16,603 nucleotides of DNA from an uncultured Candidatus Poseidoniales archaeon (GCA_964645485.1 CAZXZO010000034.1:1-16603), one strand, 5' to 3'. Counted from the first letter of the stretch, positions 3,300 through 15,570 are shown. Program-made: numbers and translations. The notes: a model not told the origin generated them from the sequence alone.

Positions 3300-6200
3300 A
3301 TGGGTAACTTGCATCTAAAAGCAATCGAAATGGAGAATTTTAAATCATTCAAAGGAGAGGTCGTAATACCGTTTGAAGTCGGTTTTACAGGGATAACTGG
3401 GCCGAATGGTTCTGGCAAGTCAAATTGTGGAGATGCACTACAGTTTGTGTTAGGGGCTAAGAGTTCGAAAAGCCTCCGCGCTGAAAATGTAGGTCAATTG
3501 ATATTCAATGGTGGTAACCACGGGAAAGCCGCAAAAAATTGCAAAGTCACACTAGTTTTTGATAATCCAAAAGATGCCTCCGGTACTCGAAGATTGAAGG
3601 TTGACACAGACGAGGTTCTACTCACAAGAACTGTCAGATTAGGTCGTAAAGGCAATTCAAACTCTGCTTATTACCTAAATGAAAGGCCCTCTACTGCAAC
3701 TGAATTCCGCCGTCTTTTGACAGGCGCAGGTGCTAGAGGAGACGGCTATAATATCGTCCTTCAAGGAGACGTCACTCACCTAGCAACAATGACTGACCGT
3801 GCTCGACGCAAGGTTTTGGAAGATGTTGCAGGTGTAACATCCTATGACGATGAAATTCGTAAGGCGAATCGCCAGCGTGACAAAGTCGAGCAGTATCTTG
3901 AGCAGATTACTCTGCTAGAGGATGAAATCAATAAGCGAATCAAAACGCTGGCGAAAGAACGCGAGCAGGCGATGAAATATCGCGAATTGCAGGAAACCCT
4001 GGAGACTGCTCGCCGGACTTTGATGCATTCTCGTCATCGAAGCCGAATAGAAGAAATTGAATTGGTAACCGATGAAAGAGGTAACTACATTGTTCGGCTG
4101 AGTGAAATCGGCGAGGAAATCGAAGCCGATAACAAGCAAGAATTGGCAATTGAAGACGAATTGGCAGAAATTCAGCGGCAATTGAATGAGGTGTTGGGCG
4201 ATGATGGTAAGAAATTGGGCGACCAACAACGCCGACTAGAAGTCGAAGTTGAAACCAGAAAAGACCGAATTTCAGGCTTGAAAGAGGACATTTCAGATGC
4301 AAGCGATGAGCAAGAAGTTCTGCAAGCAGAACAGACTGAAGCCGAACAAGCATTAGTATCTCATGAAGAATCTCTTGATTCAGCAAGAGAAACCCTCAAG
4401 AAAGCAGAAGAGGATCTTCGAGGAGCTGCAGAGGCAGAAGAAAACGCACGCTCCGCTCTTGATTCAGGTGACAAAGTTGTCCACGAACTCAATCGTGCAT
4501 TTGGGAAGGCAACTGAAGAAGTTGAAAAGACTCAAGAAGTTGCCAATAAAGCAATTCTAAAAGTTGGTGCTGAAAGCCAAAATGTAGAATTTTTGCACCA
4601 ACAACTCGCTGACCTTGAAACAGCCCTTGATGAGGCGAGGTTGAATCGTGACGATTTATTACTCCAAGGTGAAGAACTTGATTCCAATGCACCTGAACAA
4701 GACCGCACAAAATTGGCTCAAGAGTTGGCAAGAATCCAACGCCAAGAACGAGGCTTACTAGATGATGTACAGAGGTCAGAGGACCAATTACGTGATGCAG
4801 AAATGGCCTTGGTTAGGGCTCGAGGTGAACTAGAGACCCGAAGTGGCAGCACTACTGGTATGGCTCGCGCAGTGAAGTCTGTACTAAATCTCAGAGATTC
4901 TGGTGAGGTTAGAGGAATACTTGGCTCAATGTCTGAACTTTGTGCACCCAAAGATTCGCGCGATGAAGAAGCCCTTGCTTATGCGATGGGTGGAGGCATG
5001 AACAGTATCGTAGTCCGTGACGATGAAACCGCTGCACAGTGTATCTCATGGCTACGTAAGAACAAGGCAGGGAGAGCAACTTTCCTACCGTTGAACCGTT
5101 TGCAATCTCGTCGCCCTGGCGGGCGTTCCGTGATGGTTTCACGACAACCCGGTGTAGTAGGATTCGCTTCTGACTTGTTGGAATATGATAATTCAATTGA
5201 ACTTGCAGTCATCAATGTTGTACGAGACACTCTAATTGTCGAGTCAATGGATGTTGCTCGCCGCCACATGGGTGGAGTTAGAATGGTAACTAGGACCGGT
5301 TCAGTTGTCGAAGGAAGCGGTGCAATGGTTGGCGGCTCCTCAAGAGCAAACCGGCCCCAGTTTGGCGGCAAGATGGCAGGAAGTTCTGTGGTTGAGAAGG
5401 CCGAAGAAGATGTTGAACGCCTTAGCCTAGTCGCTGAAACTGGGCGAGCGGCATTGGCAGAATTACGCCAAAGCGAGCATCAACTCCGACAACGAATTAC
5501 CAATCTTGCTAATGATGACCACGCATTTGAAGCGAGGGCATGGAAAGAAGATTTAGCCCGTGCTGAAACATCATTCAAAGATTCAGAAAGCAAAGTAAAA
5601 GTTGCACTAAAGAATTTAGAACAAGCAACTGCAAAGCAGAATAAGGCTGAAAATGCGTCTGAATTAGCCAATAATGCTCATCAAGATGCAATCCAAGCAA
5701 AGACCGATGCTGCAACGGCTCTCCAAGAAGGCAGTCCACAGCATCTTTCCCGGCGTCTTCGAGATTCACAAGAGCAACGCAACGAAGCAGAGCGAGCAAA
5801 ACTCACTGCAAAGGGGACACTTTCAGGCGGCGAGAATCAATCAATTTTGTTGACCCGCCAAATCAAGGAACTACAACGTCGTATTGATGAGCAACAATCA
5901 ATCGTTGACAAGGCTACTAAGAAAATATCAGACGCTGAATCGGAAATTGAAACCTACCAAGAGGAACTTGATACCGTTAGTGAAGCCCATTCACAAATAA
6001 CCGAGGAGTACCGAGAGTTAGATGATAATAGGATTGCATTACGTGAAGAGCGCGTCAAACTAACTACACGCTTGGAACAAAAAGTCAGGGACCGTGATGC
6101 GATAAATAAGCGAATCACAGACCTCAACCTTCAGATTCACCAGAAGAAGGAAGCACTTCGTGAACTGGATGCAGAAATGGCTGAATTAGAAATCAAGCCA

Positions 6201-7358
6201 GCCTCTGATGATGCAGTTCTCCCAACTGTTCAAGAAGCCGAGGCAGCTGTTAGGAACCTTGAGCGCAGAGTTGGCAACCTAGGGGATGTCAACATGCGGG
6301 CAATTGAACAATATGACGAGGCACAGGAGCGCAGCGACAGTTTGAGCACAGACTCAAAGCGACTACGCGAGCACCGTCAAAGTTTGATTTCACTCGAAGA
6401 CCAACTTGAGACTGAGCGTAAAGACCGCTTGACAACCGTGATGGACATAGTCAATGTCAACTTCAGTAGAGTCTACCAACATCTTCAACCGGGTGGTAAA
6501 GGCGAATTACGCTTTGAAAACCCCAAGAAACCTTTCGAAGGCGGTCTTCAGATGTGGGCAAGTCCACCAGGAAAGAAGAGTGGATTGGGATTACTATCGG
6601 GCGGTGAGAAGTCCATGGCTGCACTAGCCCTGATTTTCGCAATCCAGGATTATGAACCATCTCCATTCTACTACTTTGATGAAGTTGATCAGAATCTTGA
6701 CACCTTCAACGCTGAAAACATCGCTTCATTGTGTAGATTACGCAGTGAGCAAGCACAATTCATCATGGTAACTCTTCGTAAGGTCAGCCTACAATTGGCT
6801 GACCATCATATTGGAATCACTCACGCAGGTGATGGATGCAGTAGAAGAATAACCGATTTCGGTCGTGAGCAAGCGATTGAAGTTGGAGATGCAGCACACC
6901 AAGAACTTGAGGCAATTAAGAATACTAAAGATGCAAAGAAAGCACTTGATGAGTTGCCAGCAGTCGAAGAAATGCCAAAGGCACCAGAAGAACTCGCTAC
7001 ACCAGCAAGTCTAGGTGGCTTGGATATTGAAGATTTATTAGCTGCCAATAAAGAATCAGAATTGAAAGCAGAGGCTGAAATTGCCGAACAAGATGATACT
7101 GCCTTGGAATCCGAGGATACCCCAACTCCTGAACTAGAACAGGCAGAAACACAGGACCTCGCTGAAGAAATCGAAGATGACGGCACACTTTCATCTCTTG
7201 CAGATAGGGCAGGAGATTTCAGAGAAGATATGGAAGAAAAACTCGGAGTCGCATTGCCAATTGAGCAGGAACAAAGAGATATTCTCGATGCAAGAGACAC
7301 CGAAGAAGAGGTCGACGACCTAGATATAGATGGCATCACAAAGGATGAAGGAGAGTGA
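3300..7358 (+). CDS. smc: Chromosome segregation ATPase Smc (condensin subunit) with an acidic C-terminal extension
   Basis: 1352 aa. N-terminal LKAIEMENFKSF, Walker A GPNGSGKSN, Q-loop IVLQGDV, long coiled coils, hinge (GRATFLPLNRL; GSVVEGSGAMVGG = GX6GX3GG), signature LSGGEKS, Walker B/D-loop YYFDEVDQNLD and archaeal-type QFIMVTLR. Start may be the TTG at 3309. Confidence 0.98.
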   Translation: MGNLHLKAIEMENFKSFKGEVVIPFEVGFTGITGPNGSGKSNCGDALQFVLGAKSSKSLRAENVGQLIFNGGNHGKAAKNCKVTLVFDNPKDASGTRRLKVDTDEVLLTRTVRLGRKGNSNSAYYLNERPSTATEFRRLLTGAGARGDGYNIVLQGDVTHLATMTDRARRKVLEDVAGVTSYDDEIRKANRQRDKVEQYLEQITLLEDEINKRIKTLAKEREQAMKYRELQETLETARRTLMHSRHRSRIEEIELVTDERGNYIVRLSEIGEEIEADNKQELAIEDELAEIQRQLNEVLGDDGKKLGDQQRRLEVEVETRKDRISGLKEDISDASDEQEVLQAEQTEAEQALVSHEESLDSARETLKKAEEDLRGAAEAEENARSALDSGDKVVHELNRAFGKATEEVEKTQEVANKAILKVGAESQNVEFLHQQLADLETALDEARLNRDDLLLQGEELDSNAPEQDRTKLAQELARIQRQERGLLDDVQRSEDQLRDAEMALVRARGELETRSGSTTGMARAVKSVLNLRDSGEVRGILGSMSELCAPKDSRDEEALAYAMGGGMNSIVVRDDETAAQCISWLRKNKAGRATFLPLNRLQSRRPGGRSVMVSRQPGVVGFASDLLEYDNSIELAVINVVRDTLIVESMDVARRHMGGVRMVTRTGSVVEGSGAMVGGSSRANRPQFGGKMAGSSVVEKAEEDVERLSLVAETGRAALAELRQSEHQLRQRITNLANDDHAFEARAWKEDLARAETSFKDSESKVKVALKNLEQATAKQNKAENASELANNAHQDAIQAKTDAATALQEGSPQHLSRRLRDSQEQRNEAERAKLTAKGTLSGGENQSILLTRQIKELQRRIDEQQSIVDKATKKISDAESEIETYQEELDTVSEAHSQITEEYRELDDNRIALREERVKLTTRLEQKVRDRDAINKRITDLNLQIHQKKEALRELDAEMAELEIKPASDDAVLPTVQEAEAAVRNLERRVGNLGDVNMRAIEQYDEAQERSDSLSTDSKRLREHRQSLISLEDQLETERKDRLTTVMDIVNVNFSRVYQHLQPGGKGELRFENPKKPFEGGLQMWASPPGKKSGLGLLSGGEKSMAALALIFAIQDYEPSPFYYFDEVDQNLDTFNAENIASLCRLRSEQAQFIMVTLRKVSLQLADHHIGITHAGDGCSRRITDFGREQAIEVGDAAHQELEAIKNTKDAKKALDELPAVEEMPKAPEELATPASLGGLDIEDLLAANKESELKAEAEIAEQDDTALESEDTPTPELEQAETQDLAEEIEDDGTLSSLADRAGDFREDMEEKLGVALPIEQEQRDILDARDTEEEVDDLDIDGITKDEGE

Positions 7359-8350
7359 CTCCAATGAGTGCTCTTGATTCAGAGACACTTAGAGACGACA
7401 TCATCGCTGAGATGATTGGCCATGACGAATCACTCCCCCTCAACAAAAGTAGGTATGCAGAGCATATTCAAGAGTTAGTTGAGATGGAAGAAGCCGAACA
7501 TAAGGCTCTCAGTCACCCATTTGACAGAAGTATTGCCCTGGTTTTACAGATGTTTCAGGATGCGACACTCGACCCATGGAATGTTGACCTAAACCGCTTT
7601 ATTGAATTGTTCAAAGAACGACTTAAGGGAGCCGAAAACATCGACTTACCGACTTGTGGAAGGCTAATCCGAATGGCTTGGCAAATCCTACATGGGCAAG
7701 CCGCAAACCTGTTGGAAAGGGCAGAGAATGCAGACCAAGATATTGATGATGATTGGGATTTCATTCCGAGTTGGCAGACCGAATACGATGATGACGATTT
7801 CCATTTCACTACTACCGTCTTGGCAGGTGAAGCAGCAGAAGAATTGCCTGGCCTGTTTGATGGGCGCATCAAGAGAGATGGTGGACGGCCAGTAACTCTC
7901 GCTGAATTACTATCTTGTCTTTCAGAAGCACACGACGATGCCGAAGAGCGCCGCTTGAGAGAGAGTGCCCGAGAGGAGCATGCACTGGAAGTAAAGAAGG
8001 CAATTGCCAATGTGAAGGGTCGAGTTCATCAAGAAAATTTGGAAGAAGAAATACGTGAAACTTGGCAATCAATCCGAGAGTTATCCCCAGAAGGAGAGCC
8101 TGTTACTGTTAAATCAGTCACTGAGAAACTGAAATCTAAGGGTATTGATGCAGGTTGGGACCCCGAAGATGCTGAAGCAGAAGGTGGAATAGTTGGTTTC
8201 GTATCAGCGCTTTTCCTAACTCACAGAGGTTATACAGACATTTGGCAAGTGGAATATCCAAATGGTGAAATTTTCCTACAAGATAAGTGGCCAGAATTGG
8301 GTACTTTTGACGCGATTACCGAACATCTTGCACCAGAGGTGGCAGCATGA
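7355..8350 (+). CDS. scpA: Kleisin ScpA (segregation and condensation protein A)
   Basis: 331 aa, GTGA overlap with the smc stop (alternative ATG at 7364). Archaeal ScpA motifs LDPWNVDL, CGRLIRMAWQIL..QA..LL, RPVTLAELLSCL and a C-terminal FVSALFL winged-helix segment. Confidence 0.92.
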   Translation: MTPMSALDSETLRDDIIAEMIGHDESLPLNKSRYAEHIQELVEMEEAEHKALSHPFDRSIALVLQMFQDATLDPWNVDLNRFIELFKERLKGAENIDLPTCGRLIRMAWQILHGQAANLLERAENADQDIDDDWDFIPSWQTEYDDDDFHFTTTVLAGEAAEELPGLFDGRIKRDGGRPVTLAELLSCLSEAHDDAEERRLRESAREEHALEVKKAIANVKGRVHQENLEEEIRETWQSIRELSPEGEPVTVKSVTEKLKSKGIDAGWDPEDAEAEGGIVGFVSALFLTHRGYTDIWQVEYPNGEIFLQDKWPELGTFDAITEHLAPEVAA

Positions 8351-9003: not shown

Positions 9004-9091
9004 TTTTCTTGTTCGGAGTTAGAACTTTTGTAAGATTCCTGCCCTGTTATTTGATATTCAATAGGGTGTATTCAAGTAGTATGGGTTGGGC

Positions 9092-9097
9092 GAGGTG
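9092..9097 (+). promoter_or_regulatory. Shine-Dalgarno site of the cold-shock gene
   Basis: GAGGTG ends 5 nt before the ATG at 9103 and matches the archaeal anti-SD complement. Confidence 0.6.
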
Positions 9098-9102
9098 GAA
9101 TT

Positions 9103-9294
9103 ATGGCCGAGGGTCAAGTAAAGTGGTTTAATCAGAGCAAAGGATTCGGATTTATCGAGCGAGATGAGGGTGATGACCTCTTCGTTCATATTTCCCAAGT
9201 AGAAGGTCGCATCGAAGATGGCGACAATGTGGAATTTGAGATTGGAGAGGGTCCAAAGGGACCTAATGCAATCAATGTCCGCAAAGTCGACTGA
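9103..9294 (+). CDS. cspA: Cold-shock domain protein (CspA family RNA chaperone)
   Basis: 63 aa. GQVKWFN, RNP1 KGFGFI, RNP2 LFVHIS, VEFEI and GPKGPNA.NV. Confidence 0.97.
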   Translation: MAEGQVKWFNQSKGFGFIERDEGDDLFVHISQVEGRIEDGDNVEFEIGEGPKGPNAINVRKVD

Positions 9295-9307
9295 ATAGAA
9301 TTCTCAT

Positions 9308-9331
9308 AATATTGTGCTTTAGCACAAAATT
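9308..9331. terminator. Stem-loop between convergent csp and hmgA, probably a bidirectional terminator
   Basis: AATATTGTGCT-TT-AGCACAAAATT: perfect 7-bp inverted repeat TTGTGCT/AGCACAA (9312-9327), extending to 11 bp with one mismatch, in a 37-nt gap between two stop codons. Confidence 0.6.
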
Positions 9332-10627
9332 TCAGCTATTGCGGACATGTTCAAGGGCCGCTTCAATTGCAGCAGCAGTTATTCTGCCAGATGCACGAGC
9401 GATTTCAACAACTTTGTCGACTTCGTCATCATTAGCACCAGCCGTGACTGCCATATTTCTAGCGTGTAACTTCATGTGTCCCGCTTGGATACCAACTGTG
9501 GCTAGTGCTCTAAGGGCTCCTAAATTTTGAGCAATACCGGCCGCAGCAATCACTTTGGCTAATTCGTCAGCAGTTCTTGCCCCCATTATTGCAACATTTG
9601 CCTTCGCAGTAGGGTGTACTCTAACTGCTCCACCAACTAATCCAACTGCCATTGGTAATTCAATCGAACCTACGAGGTTTCCATCAGCATCCTTCTCCCA
9701 GTGAGTGAGGGAGCCATAAATTCGCTCATGTGAAGCGTAGGAATGGGCTCCTGACTCGATTGCACGCCAATCCTGGCCGCATGCAACAGCAATAGCAGAA
9801 ATAGCGTTCATGATGCCTTTATTGTGGGTTGTAGCCCTAAATGGGTCAGCAGCAGCAAAATGGTAGGCCTGTAGTATACCATCAATGACTTTTCCCCCTT
9901 GTTCAGCAGTTTCTCCCGAATTTGCCATTTCTGATGGAGTAAATGTAGCACTTACCCTTGCTAATCGATGAACTGCTAGGTTCGAAATAATCCTCAAAAT
10001 CACTGTTCCGCCGGTTATTCTCTCAACAGTTGGGGCGATAGTTTCCGCCATGGTATTGACTGCATTTGCCCCCATTGCATCGCGGCAATCGACTAAGATA
10101 TGAATGATAACCATTGGTCCTGAATCGGTATCAATTACCCTTGCTTCAAGGCCTTTACAACCGCCTCCAAATTTGACTAAAATAGGGTCAACTTCGTTGC
10201 ATGCTGAGACTAATTCATCAGTAGCAGAAAGGACGGCTTCTTTGGCTGCAAATGGGTCATCACACCCGACCACTTGAATCTGGCCTATCATGATGGGTTC
10301 GGTGTTATCAGAGACGAAACCGCCACTGGCATGGCAGCGTTTTGCCATGTTGCTTGCAGCGGCTACAACAGATGGTTCTTCTAAGGCAAATGGTACTAGA
10401 TAATGCTCGCCATCAACGATGAAATTTGTTGCTACTCCAACCGGCAAGGCAAGGGTCCCAACTACGTTCTCGATAATACGATCTGCAGCAGCCTCAGAAA
10501 GCTCTCCTGTAGCAGCCAAAGCATCTACTGCTTCTTGGTCCAATCCTGCTAATTCAGCAATCATTTCTCGGCGCTCTTTTACACTTAATTTGTAGAATCC
10601 TTTCAGGCGGCTATTATCAACAGGCAT
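9332..10627 (-). CDS. hmgA: Hydroxymethylglutaryl-CoA reductase, class II (bacterial/MvaA type)
   Basis: 431 aa. SRLKGFYKLSV N-terminus, dimerisation motif ENVVG, EEPSVVAAAS, DAMGAN, HNKGIMN and GIQAGHMKLHARN (catalytic His), which are class II signatures. Confidence 0.97.
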   Translation of the reverse strand: MPVDNSRLKGFYKLSVKERREMIAELAGLDQEAVDALAATGELSEAAADRIIENVVGTLALPVGVATNFIVDGEHYLVPFALEEPSVVAAASNMAKRCHASGGFVSDNTEPIMIGQIQVVGCDDPFAAKEAVLSATDELVSACNEVDPILVKFGGGCKGLEARVIDTDSGPMVIIHILVDCRDAMGANAVNTMAETIAPTVERITGGTVILRIISNLAVHRLARVSATFTPSEMANSGETAEQGGKVIDGILQAYHFAAADPFRATTHNKGIMNAISAIAVACGQDWRAIESGAHSYASHERIYGSLTHWEKDADGNLVGSIELPMAVGLVGGAVRVHPTAKANVAIMGARTADELAKVIAAAGIAQNLGALRALATVGIQAGHMKLHARNMAVTAGANDDEVDKVVEIARASGRITAAAIEAALEHVRNS

Positions 10628-10765
10628 TGACTTCCCTCAACCTTGATGCCCGAGTCGGACTCCCTAAAGCATTGCGAGGATTTCCAAAACATTTGGATTA
10701 CTAGTTGAGGTGTGGTTCACGATATGATTCTCTATTGCGGATAGCAATGATTCCTACTACATCCA

Positions 10766-10838
10766 ATGCGTTAACGAAGCGTTAATTTATTGTGAATAAC
10801 GGGTTAACGCTTATTCTGATGCGTTATTAACGCGTTAA
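10766..10838. repeat. Phased direct and inverted repeat array built on GCGTTA/TAACGC
   Basis: Two 20-mers, ATGCGTTAACGAAGCGTTAA (10766-10785) and ATGCGTTATTAACGCGTTAA (10819-10838), are 16/20 identical and 53 bp apart. Each holds two GCGTTA copies 11 bp apart. Inverted copies TAACGC occur at 10805 and 10828. Confidence 0.85.
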
Positions 10839-10839
10839 A

Positions 10840-10883
10840 CCGGCAAAACAATTCCATTTTCAAGGGTCATTTTCCCGGCAAAA
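10840..10883 (+). repeat. Second short direct-repeat set (CCGGCAAAA x2, CATTTTC x2)
   Basis: CCGGCAAAA at 10840-10848 and 10875-10883. CATTTTC at 10855-10861 and 10868-10874. Confidence 0.6.
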
Positions 10884-10949
10884 GGCAACTCCGTGACTTG
10901 TTCAACGCTTCTGAACGCATCATTTTTACAACTTAAAATGCGTAAATAT

Positions 10950-10955
10950 GTTAAG
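10950..10955 (+). promoter_or_regulatory. Possible TATA-like box for the AAA-wHTH gene
   Basis: GTTAAG in AAATATGTTAAG lies about 24-29 nt upstream of the ATG at 10979, which supports that ATG over the GTG at 10955. Confidence 0.3.
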
Positions 10956-10978
10956 TGGACTTCAAGTTCGCTCCTATC

Positions 10979-12937
10979 ATGCAATCAACAGCGCTAGAGA
11001 TGTTGAATCTCCCTGCCATTAGGTCAAATCCTTTTGACACTAGACCCCTAAGTCGAGAACAGTTGGAGTTGATGGTTGGTAGAGATGAAGTGTTCACCGC
11101 TTTAGCCAACAATATCCGGTTAGTCTCACCACGGGTTGTGGCAGTGGTAGGAGAGAAAGGTTCTGGGCGCTCATCATTAGTTCAATCAGTTGCTTCAACT
11201 GCAGACCAAATCCACACCGTATTTTGGCCTTCAGGAGACCATGTTACCACCATTCTGCATCAGATATATTGCGACTTGATGAAGGACTTCGAAACCCCGC
11301 CTGTACATAGTGTGATGATTGACCGATTGGAGGAAGAATTAGCAGGCCGAACTGGGCTTCTTCCTGTCATCATTTTTGACCATTCATTATTGCCTGGTCC
11401 GGTGCTTGCAGAAGTGCTATCTCAACTGATGCCGGTATTGACTAAAATCCGTGCTTTAACCATCATTACTCTCACTCCTGGCCAGAAATCAGGCTTCCCA
11501 GAAGAACTACTTTCAGAGATGGATATTACCCCTTCTCTAGAATCTCTTACAAGAGCCGAAATGGCCTCCCTCATTGGTAAGCGGGTGCATAAGGCGAGCC
11601 GCTCATCTTGGACCGCTCCTGACGCCCTTCTTGATATGGTGATGAAAGAAAGCAGTGGACATGTTGGCAGGGCAATGAGATATCTCCGAGATGTTGTAGA
11701 TCAATCACGCGGAATGCCACTAGTTAATGGGCGTAAATTGGATTTGAAGGTTGATATCACATCAAAACCACCGACTGTAGTGGAAGATTCTACTTTTCAG
11801 CGAGTTGCTGAAGCCGCCCCTCCAATTACAGAAGTAGAAGTCAAAGTTTCAGAATCTTCTGAATTTGATTCTCAATCAGAGGAAATCCCATTTTCTGTTG
11901 TAGATGAAGAGACCTCAACAATGGCAGAACCATCAACTGAAGAGCAAATTGAAGCCCCCACAAAAGCGCCAGAATTAGATGAAAGTCAGACTTTATTCCC
12001 TTCATTATCAGATGCTGCAGACATGTGGAAGAATTCTGGCGAAGATAATGGGCCACAATTAGATTCAACCGAAGAAACAGATGTTGAAGAACAAACAATC
12101 GAATCGGAATCAGAATCTGGTGAACCTCCGCTAGAGCCTGAGGAAAATCAGCAGTGGAAGAATGAATTTAGCGATGAAATGGGTGGTGCTGAGATATTGG
12201 AGATGGCTGAAGGCACCGCACCATCATTTGGAGGAGGGCGATTTGGCGGCCTACGGTCCCGAAATAGAGCAGCAAAAATTGACACACGTGCTGAAAATAG
12301 GGGCGCACCTAGGAAAACCCAAGGCCCCAGAGAAGCAAAGCCAAACGAGGAGGAATCCGACCCTAACAGAGGTCGCAGAATCAATACTAATGACCAAAAC
12401 ACAGAACTTTGGATTCAAGATGGTACCGACTCACCGATTAAAAATGCGCCAAAAGTCAAGCCACAACAGATGCAACCGAGTATAGATAGTACTCCAAACC
12501 AAGAACCAAAACCCCAGTCCCCGGCACAGTTTGAAGAGACAATCGAGTGGGAAGAAGAACCTCAATTCGAGGATGAAGAATTGACCGGTGAACAACCCCA
12601 AGCAACACCAGAAGAAGTACTCAGTGCACTCAGTTCTATTCGCAGAGTTGCGCCTCCCCGTAAACCAGATATTGTGTTAGATATCAATGCATTAACTAAT
12701 CTCAATGATGCTGAAACGTTGATTTTGACTCAAGCAGTAGAACGTGAAGTATCTCCTTCGGACAATCTACTTCAGGATGAATTAGGAGTTGGGCGTCCTC
12801 GGCTTTCACAAATCTTCAATGGATTACTGAAATCGGGTATTCTCACAGTTCGAAAACAGGGGCGTAGTCGCATGTTTAGGATAAGTGCACCAGCCAAAGA
12901 CCACCTAGTCAATCTAGGTGCTGGAGGCGAATTCTGA
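10979..12937 (+). CDS. Uncharacterised protein: N-terminal AAA-type P-loop domain with degenerate Walker motifs, long acidic low-complexity linker, C-terminal winged helix-turn-helix
   Basis: The ORF track gives 10955-12937 (GTG); the ATG at 10979 is preferred. NPF...MVGRDE, Walker A-like GEKGSGRSS (11150-11176) and Walker B-like VIIFDH (D at 11378). About 310 aa of E/S/P/Q-rich linker, then LNDAETLIL..LQDELGVGRPRLSQIFNGLLKSGILTVRKQGRSRMFRI, a MarR/ArsR-like wHTH. Confidence 0.8.
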   Translation: MQSTALEMLNLPAIRSNPFDTRPLSREQLELMVGRDEVFTALANNIRLVSPRVVAVVGEKGSGRSSLVQSVASTADQIHTVFWPSGDHVTTILHQIYCDLMKDFETPPVHSVMIDRLEEELAGRTGLLPVIIFDHSLLPGPVLAEVLSQLMPVLTKIRALTIITLTPGQKSGFPEELLSEMDITPSLESLTRAEMASLIGKRVHKASRSSWTAPDALLDMVMKESSGHVGRAMRYLRDVVDQSRGMPLVNGRKLDLKVDITSKPPTVVEDSTFQRVAEAAPPITEVEVKVSESSEFDSQSEEIPFSVVDEETSTMAEPSTEEQIEAPTKAPELDESQTLFPSLSDAADMWKNSGEDNGPQLDSTEETDVEEQTIESESESGEPPLEPEENQQWKNEFSDEMGGAEILEMAEGTAPSFGGGRFGGLRSRNRAAKIDTRAENRGAPRKTQGPREAKPNEEESDPNRGRRINTNDQNTELWIQDGTDSPIKNAPKVKPQQMQPSIDSTPNQEPKPQSPAQFEETIEWEEEPQFEDEELTGEQPQATPEEVLSALSSIRRVAPPRKPDIVLDINALTNLNDAETLILTQAVEREVSPSDNLLQDELGVGRPRLSQIFNGLLKSGILTVRKQGRSRMFRISAPAKDHLVNLGAGGEF

Positions 12938-13962
12938 TGGCTGGTGATTGGCGCGTTTCTTGGAGTCACCAACTTGAAGGAAAAGTTGGCACTATCGAAA
13001 CTCTAAACGATGGAGTAGTTATTGCAACTGGCGGAATTGTAAGATTACTCAACGATTTAGGGGATTTCATTTGGAAGCGTACTTTTCAATTTGATGTCTA
13101 CAGATTAGTATCTGATGGAACCAGTGTCGCAGTTCTTTCAGGTCCCGGATTTCATCTATTAGATATCAGAACGGGAAACCCGCTTGGTGAAGGCCGTTCG
13201 GTTGGAGGCGGTTTCCGAGATTGTTTGCCAAGACCAGGTGGAGGTTGGTTGTTAGCTGACCGAGGCGACCATATTCACATGTTCAATCGAGATGGCAGAG
13301 GAATTAGCCGACTTCGACCGGGTCGAATCAGGAAATTAATCGGCTGGCTTGATAGAGAACATCTAATCGCCATAAATGACGATGGGCATCTCATTTGTTT
13401 ACGCCTATTTGGTGAAAACTCTCAGAGAATTATTGAGGATAGGCGTTGGTCTTGGGCTAGTCGCTTAACAAATGGGAAATTACTAGTCCAGTCAGTGGAT
13501 GGTGCTATCCACGAGGGAGTTCCAAATCCATTTGGTTGGGATTCACTTGAACAGTTGATAGATACAGGGGTGGATCCACTTGAAGCAGCAATGACTGGTG
13601 ATGGCTGGTGGATGCTTACTATGAATGGTGTTCTTGACAGAATACCGCCTACTGAAGGTGAATCGTGGCCCGCAGGAGTTCATATTTCATCCAACAACTC
13701 TGATATCATTACAACAGCAACAAGAGATGGATTAATTCGTTGGTGGGAATCACCAAAACTAATCTCAAAACGTGATTTATTTCTCAGAAAATTGGTTACC
13801 GAAGAGCGTCAAAGAGTTGATTGGGAGCAGCGCCAAGTTATCTTTGAAGCAGCAAGAGATGCCGAAGAAAATGGTCTGTTAACCCGAGCGATTGAGTTGT
13901 ACAATACTCTAGGTAGGCATGAGGACGTGCGACGCATCTTAGCCATCAAGGAGGCCGGTTGA
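12937..13962 (+). CDS. Beta-propeller (PQQ/WD40-like) protein with a C-terminal helical, TPR-like segment
   Basis: 341 aa, TGATG overlap with the upstream gene. Recurrent short strands with Trp/Gly (SWSHQLEG, GDFIWKRTF, LLDIRTGNPL) and a WD-like repeat IITTATRDGLIRWWES (13705-13752). Helical end FEAARDAEENGLLTRAIELYNTLGRHEDVRRI. Confidence 0.7.
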   Translation: MAGDWRVSWSHQLEGKVGTIETLNDGVVIATGGIVRLLNDLGDFIWKRTFQFDVYRLVSDGTSVAVLSGPGFHLLDIRTGNPLGEGRSVGGGFRDCLPRPGGGWLLADRGDHIHMFNRDGRGISRLRPGRIRKLIGWLDREHLIAINDDGHLICLRLFGENSQRIIEDRRWSWASRLTNGKLLVQSVDGAIHEGVPNPFGWDSLEQLIDTGVDPLEAAMTGDGWWMLTMNGVLDRIPPTEGESWPAGVHISSNNSDIITTATRDGLIRWWESPKLISKRDLFLRKLVTEERQRVDWEQRQVIFEAARDAEENGLLTRAIELYNTLGRHEDVRRILAIKEAG

Positions 13963-14255
13963 TGAACTCACAAGTAACTCAAGAATTAGTTGAGAAATAC
14001 CTTGATTTGACTTCACGAGCCAAAGCAAAGGCGACGCCGATACATGGTGAAGACACTGCTGAGGCTAAACAATTGAGTGATATGATGGGGATGTGCGATG
14101 ATTACGCATCAGACGCGCGTCATTTCATGGGAGTTGGTGATTTAGTGCGGGCGTTCGGGGCGATAAATTATGCTCACGCTTGGCTTGATGCTGCTGTTCG
14201 AATTGGATTATTAGATGGGCATGGGGATGACCAATTGTTCACCCTTCCCAAGTGA
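13962..14255 (+). CDS. DUF357 family protein (conserved small archaeal helical protein)
   Basis: YASDARHFMGVGDLVRAFGAINYAHAWLDAAVRIG matches the DUF357 pattern YxxDAxxFxxxGDxxxAxxxxxYAHxWLDA. ATG at 13962 overlaps the upstream TGA, with GGAGG at 13950-13954. Confidence 0.88.
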   Translation: MNSQVTQELVEKYLDLTSRAKAKATPIHGEDTAEAKQLSDMMGMCDDYASDARHFMGVGDLVRAFGAINYAHAWLDAAVRIGLLDGHGDDQLFTLPK

Positions 14256-14364: not shown

Positions 14365-15570
14365 ATGGTCAGCGAGACATTGGGAGGCAAGCGTGTGGCG
14401 GGATATTTAGACAGAATTGGAGCGGGCAAGATTCTCATCAATGCCGAGCCGCTGTCATACGATTATGTGCCAGAAGAATTAGTTGGCAGGGATGAGCAAT
14501 TACAGCAAATGGCTGGCATCTTTCAACAAATTAATGACCACAGAATTTCTTGTCGTGTAGCAATTACCGGAAATGTAGGGTGTGGTAAGACAGCACTTTC
14601 ACATGTGTTTTCAAGGGATTTACAGAGGCACCTTGGTGAGGAAAGGGCACTCAAGTTGGTTCATGTCAATTGTCGAAATTTCCCATCAAAATCACAGGTT
14701 TTGCAGCGTATTGTCACACATCTTGACTCTAGGCATCCAGAGCGCGGCTTTGGTAGCGGTGAGGTTTTACAATCGATACGCAAGCAATTACAAGGCAGAA
14801 ATGAACACTTGTTATTGATTTTAGATGAAGTTGACCATCTACTGAGAGCTGACAAGGGAGACCTTCTCTATCAACTTCTAAGAATTGATGAAGGTCGTGA
14901 GATTAAAGGCACAATTTCACTAATAATCATCAGTCAAGAGCAAGTACTTGACCAGTTAGAAGGGGCCGTATTATCGCGCTTTGGTCAAAGTAATCACATT
15001 AGGCTTGAATCGTATCAAGAAACGGCATTAACTGCAATCGCTACACAGCGTGCAGCATTATCATGTCATGAGGGTTCTATTCCTGATGGCGTATTACGTA
15101 CAATAGGGCAACGTTCTGCAGAAACTGGTGATGCTAGAGTTGCCATCGAATTATTGGAAGATTCAATCAAGAAGGCTGAACGAGCAGGCCGAGATGAGGT
15201 AATTGCTGATGATGTGCGATTTTTGGCAAAAGAAATCGGCCGTACAGTGGAGCCGAGCATTGTTGTTGACCTAAACAAACATGCTCAGATGATTTTGCTA
15301 GCACTTTGCCGCAGACTTCGCAAGGAGTCTGAGGTGACAACAGGTGATGCAGAAAAATTGTATCGTGTGGTCTGTGAAGAATATGAAGAAGAACCACGTA
15401 GCCATACTACTTTCTGGAAGCACCTCAAGCGTTTAGAAGACTTAGAATTGATTGAGTCGCATATATCTAGCCGCTCCGAAGGACGCGGCCGCACACAACA
15501 TATCTCAATGCCGGCGGCACTACCTGGAGCAGTTGAGAAACGGCTTGAGAGTGCCCTAAAGGGCAAATGA
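14365..15570 (+). CDS. cdc6: Orc1/Cdc6 family replication initiation protein
   Basis: 401 aa. LSYDYVPEELVGRDEQ, Walker A GNVGCGKT, VHVNC, Walker B LLILDEVDHL, TGDARVAIELL and the C-terminal wHTH VTTGDAEKLYRVVCE..EPRSHTTFWKHLKRLEDLELI...GRGRT. Confidence 0.96.
   Translation: MVSETLGGKRVAGYLDRIGAGKILINAEPLSYDYVPEELVGRDEQLQQMAGIFQQINDHRISCRVAITGNVGCGKTALSHVFSRDLQRHLGEERALKLVHVNCRNFPSKSQVLQRIVTHLDSRHPERGFGSGEVLQSIRKQLQGRNEHLLLILDEVDHLLRADKGDLLYQLLRIDEGREIKGTISLIIISQEQVLDQLEGAVLSRFGQSNHIRLESYQETALTAIATQRAALSCHEGSIPDGVLRTIGQRSAETGDARVAIELLEDSIKKAERAGRDEVIADDVRFLAKEIGRTVEPSIVVDLNKHAQMILLALCRRLRKESEVTTGDAEKLYRVVCEEYEEEPRSHTTFWKHLKRLEDLELIESHISSRSEGRGRTQHISMPAALPGAVEKRLESALKGK

Follow-up and report, generated by a model that had tools for sequence, protein, structure and literature searches.

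A phased GCGTTAA box array of Marine Group II archaea as a candidate operator of the adjacent AAA+/winged-helix gene

Marine Group II ranks with the most abundant archaea of the plankton; to our knowledge none of its members is in culture, and we know of no experimental work on their replication, their chromosome segregation or the control of their lipid synthesis. The window analyzed here, the whole of a 16.6-kb contig (C34) from a 1.94-Mb Thalassarchaeaceae metagenome-assembled genome (Poseidoniales, Marine Group II; 55 contigs, 43.9% GC), holds a dense cluster of GCGTTA hexamers between two divergent genes, and the question raised by this locus is which protein reads the cluster and to what end.

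Layout of the array

A hexamer search of the window located GCGTTA on the plus strand at 10768, 10779, 10821 and 10832 and on the minus strand at 10805 and 10828, and these six copies, all within 10768–10837, are the only ones in the 16.6 kb; by comparison with shuffled sequence their total is unremarkable (6 vs. 4.08 expected), whereas their clustering within 70 bp is not. A repeat finder recovered two 20-mers (10766–10785 and 10819–10838) that are identical at 16 of 20 positions and offset by 53 bp, and a perfect 9-nt inverted repeat (10777–10785 and 10804–10812) with an 18-nt spacer. Palindromes could be read directly at 10769–10776 (CGTTAACG), 10827–10838 (TTAACGCGTTAA, 12 bp) and 10821–10833 (of the 6-1-6 type). 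An initial annotation of this DNA had listed the hexamers, the 20-mer repeat, the inverted repeat and the palindromes, and every position that it gave for them was correct; the weaker echoes of the motif that it had reported further downstream proved to be both real and conserved (TCAACGC, TGAACGC and GCGTAAA; blocks D and E in Table 1).

The array lies in the middle of the 351-bp spacer (10628–10978) that separates hmgA from a divergent gene of 652 residues downstream of the array, labeled P652 here. Counted from the P652 ATG, the six perfect hexamers and one degenerate copy (TAACGG) occupy −211 to −141, two weaker boxes −77 to −61, and a further weak box, over a TATA-like element, −39 to −33. 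Block A is invariant in ~20 congeneric species, and block C is the most conserved block of the spacer. Block D is located directly upstream of the P652 core promoter and has a counterpart in Poseidoniaceae, a TAACG pair; this and all other promoter elements and transcription starts mentioned here were inferred from sequence alone. Block E, presumed to be the BRE/TATA region of the P652 operon, is centered 33 nt before the ATG and is invariant in the genus, and in other Thalassarchaeaceae genera a GCGT-N-AA box abuts the TATA-like element.

Table 1. Box blocks of the array and genes around it, in window coordinates.
Feature	Position	Strand	Description
Block A	10768–10785	+	Direct GCGTTAA boxes at 10768–10774 and 10779–10785; 11-bp period; first box overlaps CGTTAACG
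Block B	10797–10810	−	Inverted boxes: degenerate TAACGG (10797–10802) and perfect TTAACGC (10804–10810)
Block C	10818–10838		GCGTTA 10821–10826 (+), TTAACGC 10827–10833 (−), GCGTTAA 10832–10838 (+); contains TTAACGCGTTAA
C-to-D spacer	10839–10900		62 bp; length fixed, sequence free; gapless at low identity in a 20-locus alignment
Block D	10902–10918	−	One-mismatch boxes TCAACGC (10902–10908) and TGAACGC (10912–10918); 10-bp period
Block E	10940–10955	+	GCGTAAA (10940–10946) overlapping TATA-like TAAATAT (10943–10949), then GTTAAG
hmgA	9332–10627	−	HMG-CoA reductase (Pfam PF00368, E = 1e-103); divergent from the array spacer
P652	10979–12937	+	652 residues, ATG at 10979; candidate binder
P341 and DUF357 gene	12937–13962 and 13959–14255	+	Each frame overlaps the 3′ end of the gene before it
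orc1/cdc6 (Orc1-1 type)	14365–15570	+	Pfam Cdc6_C and lid; TIGR02928, 252.7 bits

Uniqueness and conservation across Poseidoniales

The source genome contains 335 hexamers in 1,938,227 bp, and no 100-bp window away from the array holds more than two of them; Poisson arithmetic on these genome counts puts the chance of a six-hexamer cluster anywhere in the genome at ~1e-7. The genome-wide count of such clusters, which had been suggested in the initial annotation as a check on the array, thus found it to be unique, and searches with the core CGTTAA, with paired boxes and with the 12-bp palindrome likewise found a cluster at this site only. In five further genomes, one of them closed and the other four with a completeness of at least 93%, the orthologous locus is the only place with the paired-box and palindrome patterns. 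The sole other box pair in the source genome (C30:18262) sits inside a long ORF and was rejected as a second target site, and lone GCGTTAA heptamers outside the array are just ~2-fold enriched in non-coding DNA as defined by a crude ORF mask, which gives no sign of a regulon. A separate 14-mer, TTTAACGCGGAGTT, is present in three non-coding places of G000 (C4:64502, C13:30125 and C18:17899) and probably belongs to a repeated RNA gene or a mobile element.

By their record titles, the relatives belong to Candidatus Poseidoniales (Marine Group II), family Thalassarchaeaceae. Conservation of the motif in the orthologous spacer of relatives was another check named in advance, and the motif is present at all 64 non-redundant Poseidoniales loci: CGTTAA occurs 325 times in 25.6 kb of hmgA–P652 spacer vs. 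13 times in 196 kb of flanking sequence, an enrichment of ~190-fold. The extended box consensus drawn from these 64 loci is an asymmetric unit of ~10 bp, A-N-G-CGTTAA-Y. Of 125 distances between same-orientation neighbors, 66 are 11 bp, the next most common being 22–23 and 31–32 bp; the helical phasing first noticed in the direct copies of the window recurs across the whole set. The main array lies 140–230 bp before the ATG of P652, with additional boxes down to −20.

Within the genus of the source genome the boxes stand out from the sequence between them, with a column identity of 0.97 vs. 0.72 for the spacers in 17 congeners. The array keeps the same coordinates relative to the P652 start in ~20 congeneric species, even where P652 itself is just 58–63% identical, and while the distance between array and hmgA changes by indels, that between array and P652 is constant. 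Between genera, box number, order and orientation all vary. The TATA-like element of Thalassarchaeaceae has box variants next to or over it; in Poseidoniaceae the TAACG pair lies upstream of the TATA-like element and the array starts 65–130 nt away from the start of hmgA. None of five non-Poseidoniales Thermoplasmatota genomes had paired boxes, and no description of the array turned up in library papers on Marine Group II/Poseidoniales and replication origins.

Two loci have features of their own. In a Thalassarchaeaceae genus (G021:C3; loci L023 and L145) the box has drifted to AGCGTGA/AGCGTTR, with one perfect CGTTAA left, and the P652 of this genome is far longer (821–839 residues). In the closed Poseidoniaceae genome G026 a run of 15 Ns, perhaps withheld or unresolved bases, interrupts the array (L021:4930–4945, at ~694.93 kb of G026:C1), making the box counts at this locus lower bounds.

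P652 and the gene neighborhood

The initial annotation had pointed to a winged-helix protein encoded immediately downstream of the array as its likely reader. A winged helix is indeed encoded at 12692–12900, although not by a separate gene: it is the C-terminal domain of P652, whose start codon is at 10979. P652 has an orthologue in all 41 genomes of the order (41/41) and consists of three parts, an AAA+/STAND-like region (residues 1–250), an acidic linker of ~300 residues and an ArsR/SmtB-type winged helix (residues ~570–650).

The N-terminal domain is modeled as an AAA+ fold with lid (pLDDT 90.7), and its nearest solved folds, at a TM of ~0.6, are those of TnsC, MuB, CED-4/NLR STAND proteins, ORC/Cdc6, RFC and RuvB; a profile search with this domain gave human Cdc6 as the sole long alignment. 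The ATPase motifs are unusual: Walker A reads G-x-x-G-S-G-R-S/T, with Arg in place of Lys in at least 90% of sequences, and Walker B (h-h-h-h-D) is followed by a non-acidic residue and thus lacks the second acidic residue (glutamate). P652 reached no curated family cut-off, scoring below those of the ArsR model NF033788 (20.5 vs. 55 bits) and of AAA_16 (29.8 vs. 32.6), and had no match to the Orc1/Cdc6 models TIGR02928 and Cdc6_C, the former scoring 252.7 bits with the true cdc6. We rejected P652 as a member of the Orc1/Cdc6 family based on this lack of a model match, the absent Walker A Lys and the incomplete Walker B acidic pair.

The linker is acidic, variable and gap-rich, and was called disordered. 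Short motifs in it (window 11700–12650) are nevertheless kept across the order, one around W350 and another, G-G-R-F-G-G-L-R-S-R-N, with an invariant R428; these may be partner-binding sites.

For the C-terminal ~85 residues a complete ArsR/SmtB winged helix is predicted (pLDDT 88), the model showing helices, a hairpin and a helix at the end. The best 40 Foldseek matches are nearly all ArsR/SmtB proteins, the closest structures being HlyU, Rv0081, SmtB, NolR and CzrA (E-values of ~1e-4 for the first four), and a profile search matched BigR (4e-5). Neither Pfam HTH_5 nor HTH_20 was among the matches listed, and judging from the model the domain is kin to the ArsR/SmtB family at the level of fold only. 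Four residues of the presumed recognition helix (R606, R608, S610 and Q611) are invariant across the order, matching the invariant core of the box. The winged-helix profile found one copy in each of 18 Poseidoniales (18/18), and among ~100 other Thermoplasmatota, including one genome of the same class, a single marginal match. A homodimer prediction for the winged helix scored 0.00 in a run without controls and is evidence neither way.

P341 and the DUF357 gene likely form the remainder of a P652 operon, as their overlapping frames suggest. P341, putatively a propeller/TPR-like protein, which would be a typical STAND sensor, had no match when compared by sequence with solved structures, and the idea of a defense system was dropped, there being no meaningful PADLOC match for P652, P341 or the DUF357 protein. 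From the array to orc1/cdc6 the distance is 3.5 kb, with three genes between. The S6e gene follows orc1/cdc6, and smc, an ORF at the scpA position and scpB are upstream of hmgA; this 331-residue ORF (7355–8350) has no family match and is called scpA by position alone. The order smc, scpA-position ORF, scpB/hmgA/P652-P341-DUF357/cdc6-S6e was found at 18 loci from three families, the cdc6-S6e pair being inverted in Poseidoniaceae and ~2 kb further off (~6 kb from the array), and hmgA, present at these 18 loci too, is the divergent neighbor in 57 of 57 loci. The window contains no tRNA.

Two further observations concern the genes upstream of hmgA. The convergent spacer between the ends of scpB and hmgA (9004–9331) is, at 328 bp with short ORFs only, unusually long for a compact genome. 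The smc frame (3300–7358) is 1352 residues long and the tblastn matches at 18 loci mostly end at residue 1241 (range 1230–1347), which is consistent with the lineage-variable C-terminal tail earlier ascribed to smc.

Operator, origin or centromere

That the array is a protein-binding platform under selection we regard as certain, and the proposal of a cooperative platform is supported by near-invariant boxes vs. drifting spacers, by phasing that recurs in 64 loci and by the presence of a single copy per genome. The proposal that the downstream winged-helix protein is the binder is also supported, circumstantially: the fixed distance between array and P652, the indel-free C-to-D spacer, the boxes at or over the TATA-like element and the shared distribution of array and protein in Poseidoniales together point to the P652 promoter as the functional partner of the array and make P652 the most economical candidate binder. 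The sites are in the gene's own promoter, as read from the sequence, and touch its core; sites and protein also share their phyletic distribution, and within one order this co-distribution is a single phylogenetic event, not independent replication. Our preferred reading, of moderate confidence, is that the array is an operator with several docking sites for P652, which the adjacent gene encodes.

We envisage that the unit recognized would be the asymmetric ~10-bp box, and that P652 would assemble through its degenerate AAA+/STAND-like domain, such oligomerization being itself presumed. The assembly would present several ArsR-type winged helices on long flexible linkers, and these could fill boxes on the same face of the helix at the 11-bp period, with the fixed 62-bp spacer letting the upstream complex reach the promoter-proximal boxes. 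Such a complex would set transcription of P652-P341-DUF357, and possibly of cdc6, with either sign of regulation. It may also act on the divergent hmgA, which is conceivable based on the fact that the Poseidoniaceae array abuts a conserved hmgA-proximal motif taken as the hmgA promoter, and co-control of hmgA is possible. Heads tethered independently by long linkers to an oligomerizing core would accommodate the reshuffling of box order and orientation between genera, but a rigid dimer bound to a fixed palindrome would not. Against an operator, most of the array is at least 100 bp from either inferred core promoter, and a simple autoregulator could do with fewer than the six to nine boxes present, a surplus that hints at a larger nucleoprotein assembly. 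ArsR-family dimers, moreover, usually sit on inverted repeats, but direct repeats prevail in the array, and P652 stays below the curated cut-offs of the ArsR models and of AAA_16.

Known systems offer partial parallels to a P652 operator, which would work in the manner of MalT boxes or of plasmid parC; the best functional analogues are MalT, Orc1-2 and the repeat arrays of R1 parC, SegB and AspA, described below. Pho boxes, read by winged-helix regulators of the PhoB/OmpR family, consist of a 7-bp direct repeat and a 4-bp spacer, giving an 11-bp period that is read head-to-tail on one face of the DNA. The array resembles them in its period and in having candidate winged-helix readers on one face, and differs in that Pho boxes serve bacterial response regulators of an unrelated protein family and typically number two to four repeats beside the −35 element. 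MalT is a STAND ATPase that must multimerize for cooperative binding to MalT boxes (PMC4381067), and it shares with P652 an NTPase oligomerization domain joined to a small HTH-type domain and short asymmetric boxes in both orientations upstream of a promoter; the presence of CED-4, Apaf-1 and NLRs among the fold matches of the P652 N-terminal domain adds to the likeness to STAND proteins. P652 differs in its ArsR-type domain (LuxR-type in MalT), its 300-residue acidic linker, its Arg for the Walker A Lys and in having, instead of a regulon, a single target locus per genome, and its partners, as P652 is archaeal, would be TBP/TFB and not a sigma-70 polymerase. Orc1-2 of Saccharolobus/Sulfolobus islandicus is an Orc1/Cdc6 paralogue that acts as a transcription factor on the hexanucleotide ANTTTC (PMC6061795). 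Both it and P652 are archaeal proteins with AAA+ and winged-helix domains for which promoter control through a short asymmetric motif is known or proposed (20–60 bp upstream of start codons for Orc1-2), but Orc1-2 is a true Orc1/Cdc6 member that reads single boxes in many promoters, whereas P652 matches no Orc1/Cdc6 model, has an ArsR-like winged helix and faces one multi-box locus.

A different reading of the same locus is that the array is the chromosomal origin, or part of it, tied to orc1-1, with its boxes read by the initiator-like P652 or by Orc1-1, and this we consider unlikely. It draws on the array being a single, order-wide copy near orc1/cdc6, on cdc6-1 adjoining no other sizeable non-coding stretch, and on the initiator-like AAA+ plus winged-helix layout of P652, with Cdc6/Orc1 structures among its fold matches; the phased direct repeats are, in addition, iteron-like. 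GC skew offers a hint only, being weak everywhere and dominated by the coding strand. In the closed genome G026 (2.06 Mb; sampled at 58% and corrected for coding strand) the cumulative skew has minima at ~650 and ~1950 kb and maxima at ~185 and ~1207 kb, and the array maps to 695 kb, one cdc6 gene to 701 kb and the other to 1830 kb. Two long contigs were covered in full: in the Poseidoniaceae contig G032:C3 a minimum at 110–120 kb lies close to the array at 108 kb (p = 0.04, uncorrected), but the Thalassarchaeum contig G023:C8 has no change of skew at the array (p = 0.68). The lowest-GC spot near the G026 minimum (653.8 kb) is coding sequence and was rejected as a classical origin. ORB and mini-ORB elements are TCCA-N-TGGA-type dyads with a G-rich tail, usually inverted around an unwinding element. 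As the initial annotation had stated, the motif is not the canonical ORB: the boxes differ from it, units of 7–10 bp vs. at least 20 bp for ORBs, and 10628–10978 contains no ORB-like dyad (a search for TTCCA-N-TGGAA dyads gave scattered, uninformative matches). Boxes 11 bp apart or abutting are also too dense for Orc1 monomers, whose footprint we take to be 25–35 bp (2qby and 2v1u structures). The array further lacks an AT-rich unwinding element: the GC content of the spacer is 41% vs. 43.9% genome-wide, with a 60-bp minimum of 30% that falls in the promoter region, and in some species the stretches between boxes are GC-rich. Nor is the arrangement of boxes conserved between genera, and P652 has neither the Walker A lysine nor the Walker B glutamate. 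An iteron-type plasmid origin, which combines 17–22-bp direct iterons, the gene of a Rep (WH1-WH2) initiator and an AT-rich region, was rejected as well, the array having a shorter unit at an 11-bp period, a neighbor with AAA+ and ArsR-like winged-helix domains and no AT-rich region. On balance "origin-proximal" is a plausible description of the array, and "the origin" a minority reading. Marine Group II has both Orc1-1 and Orc1-2 according to phylogenomics (PMC3914693), and in G000 a 480-bp spacer (C3:92865–93344) upstream of the second orc1/cdc6 gene (C3, ~93345–94583) has 33.8% GC, a 60-bp minimum of 21.7% and TTCCAATTGGA-type dyads; by its sequence it looks like a classical archaeal origin.

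The array could instead be a centromere-like or chromosome-organizing site on which P652 nucleates a complex for segregation or SMC loading, autoregulation being a side effect, and we regard this as distinctly unlikely. In the parC/ParR system of plasmid R1, 11-bp phased repeats are located upstream of the operon of their binder and overlap its promoter. Archaeal SegB and AspA sites are likewise repeats or palindromes upstream of, and overlapping, the promoter of the binder's operon (PMC5120986), one array can be both operator and centromere, and AspA is itself a winged-helix protein. The array fits this pattern in that each chromosome has one copy, whose boxes, phased at 11 bp, lie upstream of its candidate binder's operon, reach into the promoter and are more numerous than a simple repressor needs; smc-scpA-scpB (scpA by position) adjoins it in all three families, TnsC and MuB, both of which form filaments on DNA, are among the closest AAA+ fold matches, and the conserved linker motifs around W350 and R428 could recruit partners. 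However, no ParA-type, SegA-type or actin-like motor gene is present in the cluster, the ATPase motifs of P652 are degenerate, hmgA stands between the array and scpB, P652 is tied to Smc/ScpAB by gene order alone, and the strict array–P652 distance is explained more simply by promoter control; ParR, moreover, is a ribbon-helix-helix protein, and the array is chromosomal, order-wide and composed of boxes in mixed orientations. That another regulator, controlling hmgA and thus isoprenoid lipid synthesis, has its operator in these boxes, with P652 a mere neighbor, is very doubtful: hmgA is the invariable divergent neighbor and is close to the array in Poseidoniaceae, but in the source genus it is the hmgA distance that varies, the promoter-proximal boxes are on the P652 side, a single-target regulator is mostly encoded beside its site, and no other DNA-binding gene, within what was searched, has the distribution of the array. 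Scarcely credible is a structured RNA encoded by the nested palindromes, for although hairpins can be drawn (minimum free energy of −22.2 kcal/mol on the plus strand), there is no Rfam match, z-scores are just −1.9 and −1.25, the covariation term is −0.42 with a compensatory change in one of 18 pairs, and the array is upstream of both inferred promoters; the arms are invariant because the box is self-complementary.

As an operator of P652 the array would be of an already known kind, that of cooperative multi-box operator arrays, while the regulator, with its degenerate AAA+ domain, long acidic linker and ArsR-type winged helix, has an undescribed architecture and would be new to archaea. The array is a rare cis-acting site, kept order-wide in single copy per genome and paired with one candidate binder, and this single candidate, being expressible in E. 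coli, makes the array testable in vitro; it is also a sequence marker for the hmgA–cdc6 neighborhood. We think it rather unlikely that array and P652 together are a Marine Group II-specific chromosome-level nucleoprotein machine, that is, a non-canonical origin or a centromere/SMC-loading site. If they were, the array would be a new type of chromosome landmark in archaea, with transcriptional autoregulation as the visible by-product only: as an origin its elements would be read by a degenerate, initiator-like AAA+/winged-helix protein instead of Orc1, and as a centromere or SMC-loading site it would lie beside both smc-scpAB and orc1.

A link to viruses was considered and rejected, as the viral contigs with three boxes at an 11-bp period (60 loci) all have perfect tandem repeats of an unrelated kind, and the nine window proteins used as queries, including P652 and the hmgA product, have no relatives encoded at any of these 60 loci. 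A group of related viral contigs (L196, L199, L203, L204, L223, L228, L233 and L240) has three tandem copies of TGCGTTAAAAC immediately ahead of a gene start; apart from a common GCGTTAA core, this 11-bp iteron or operator is unrelated to the array.
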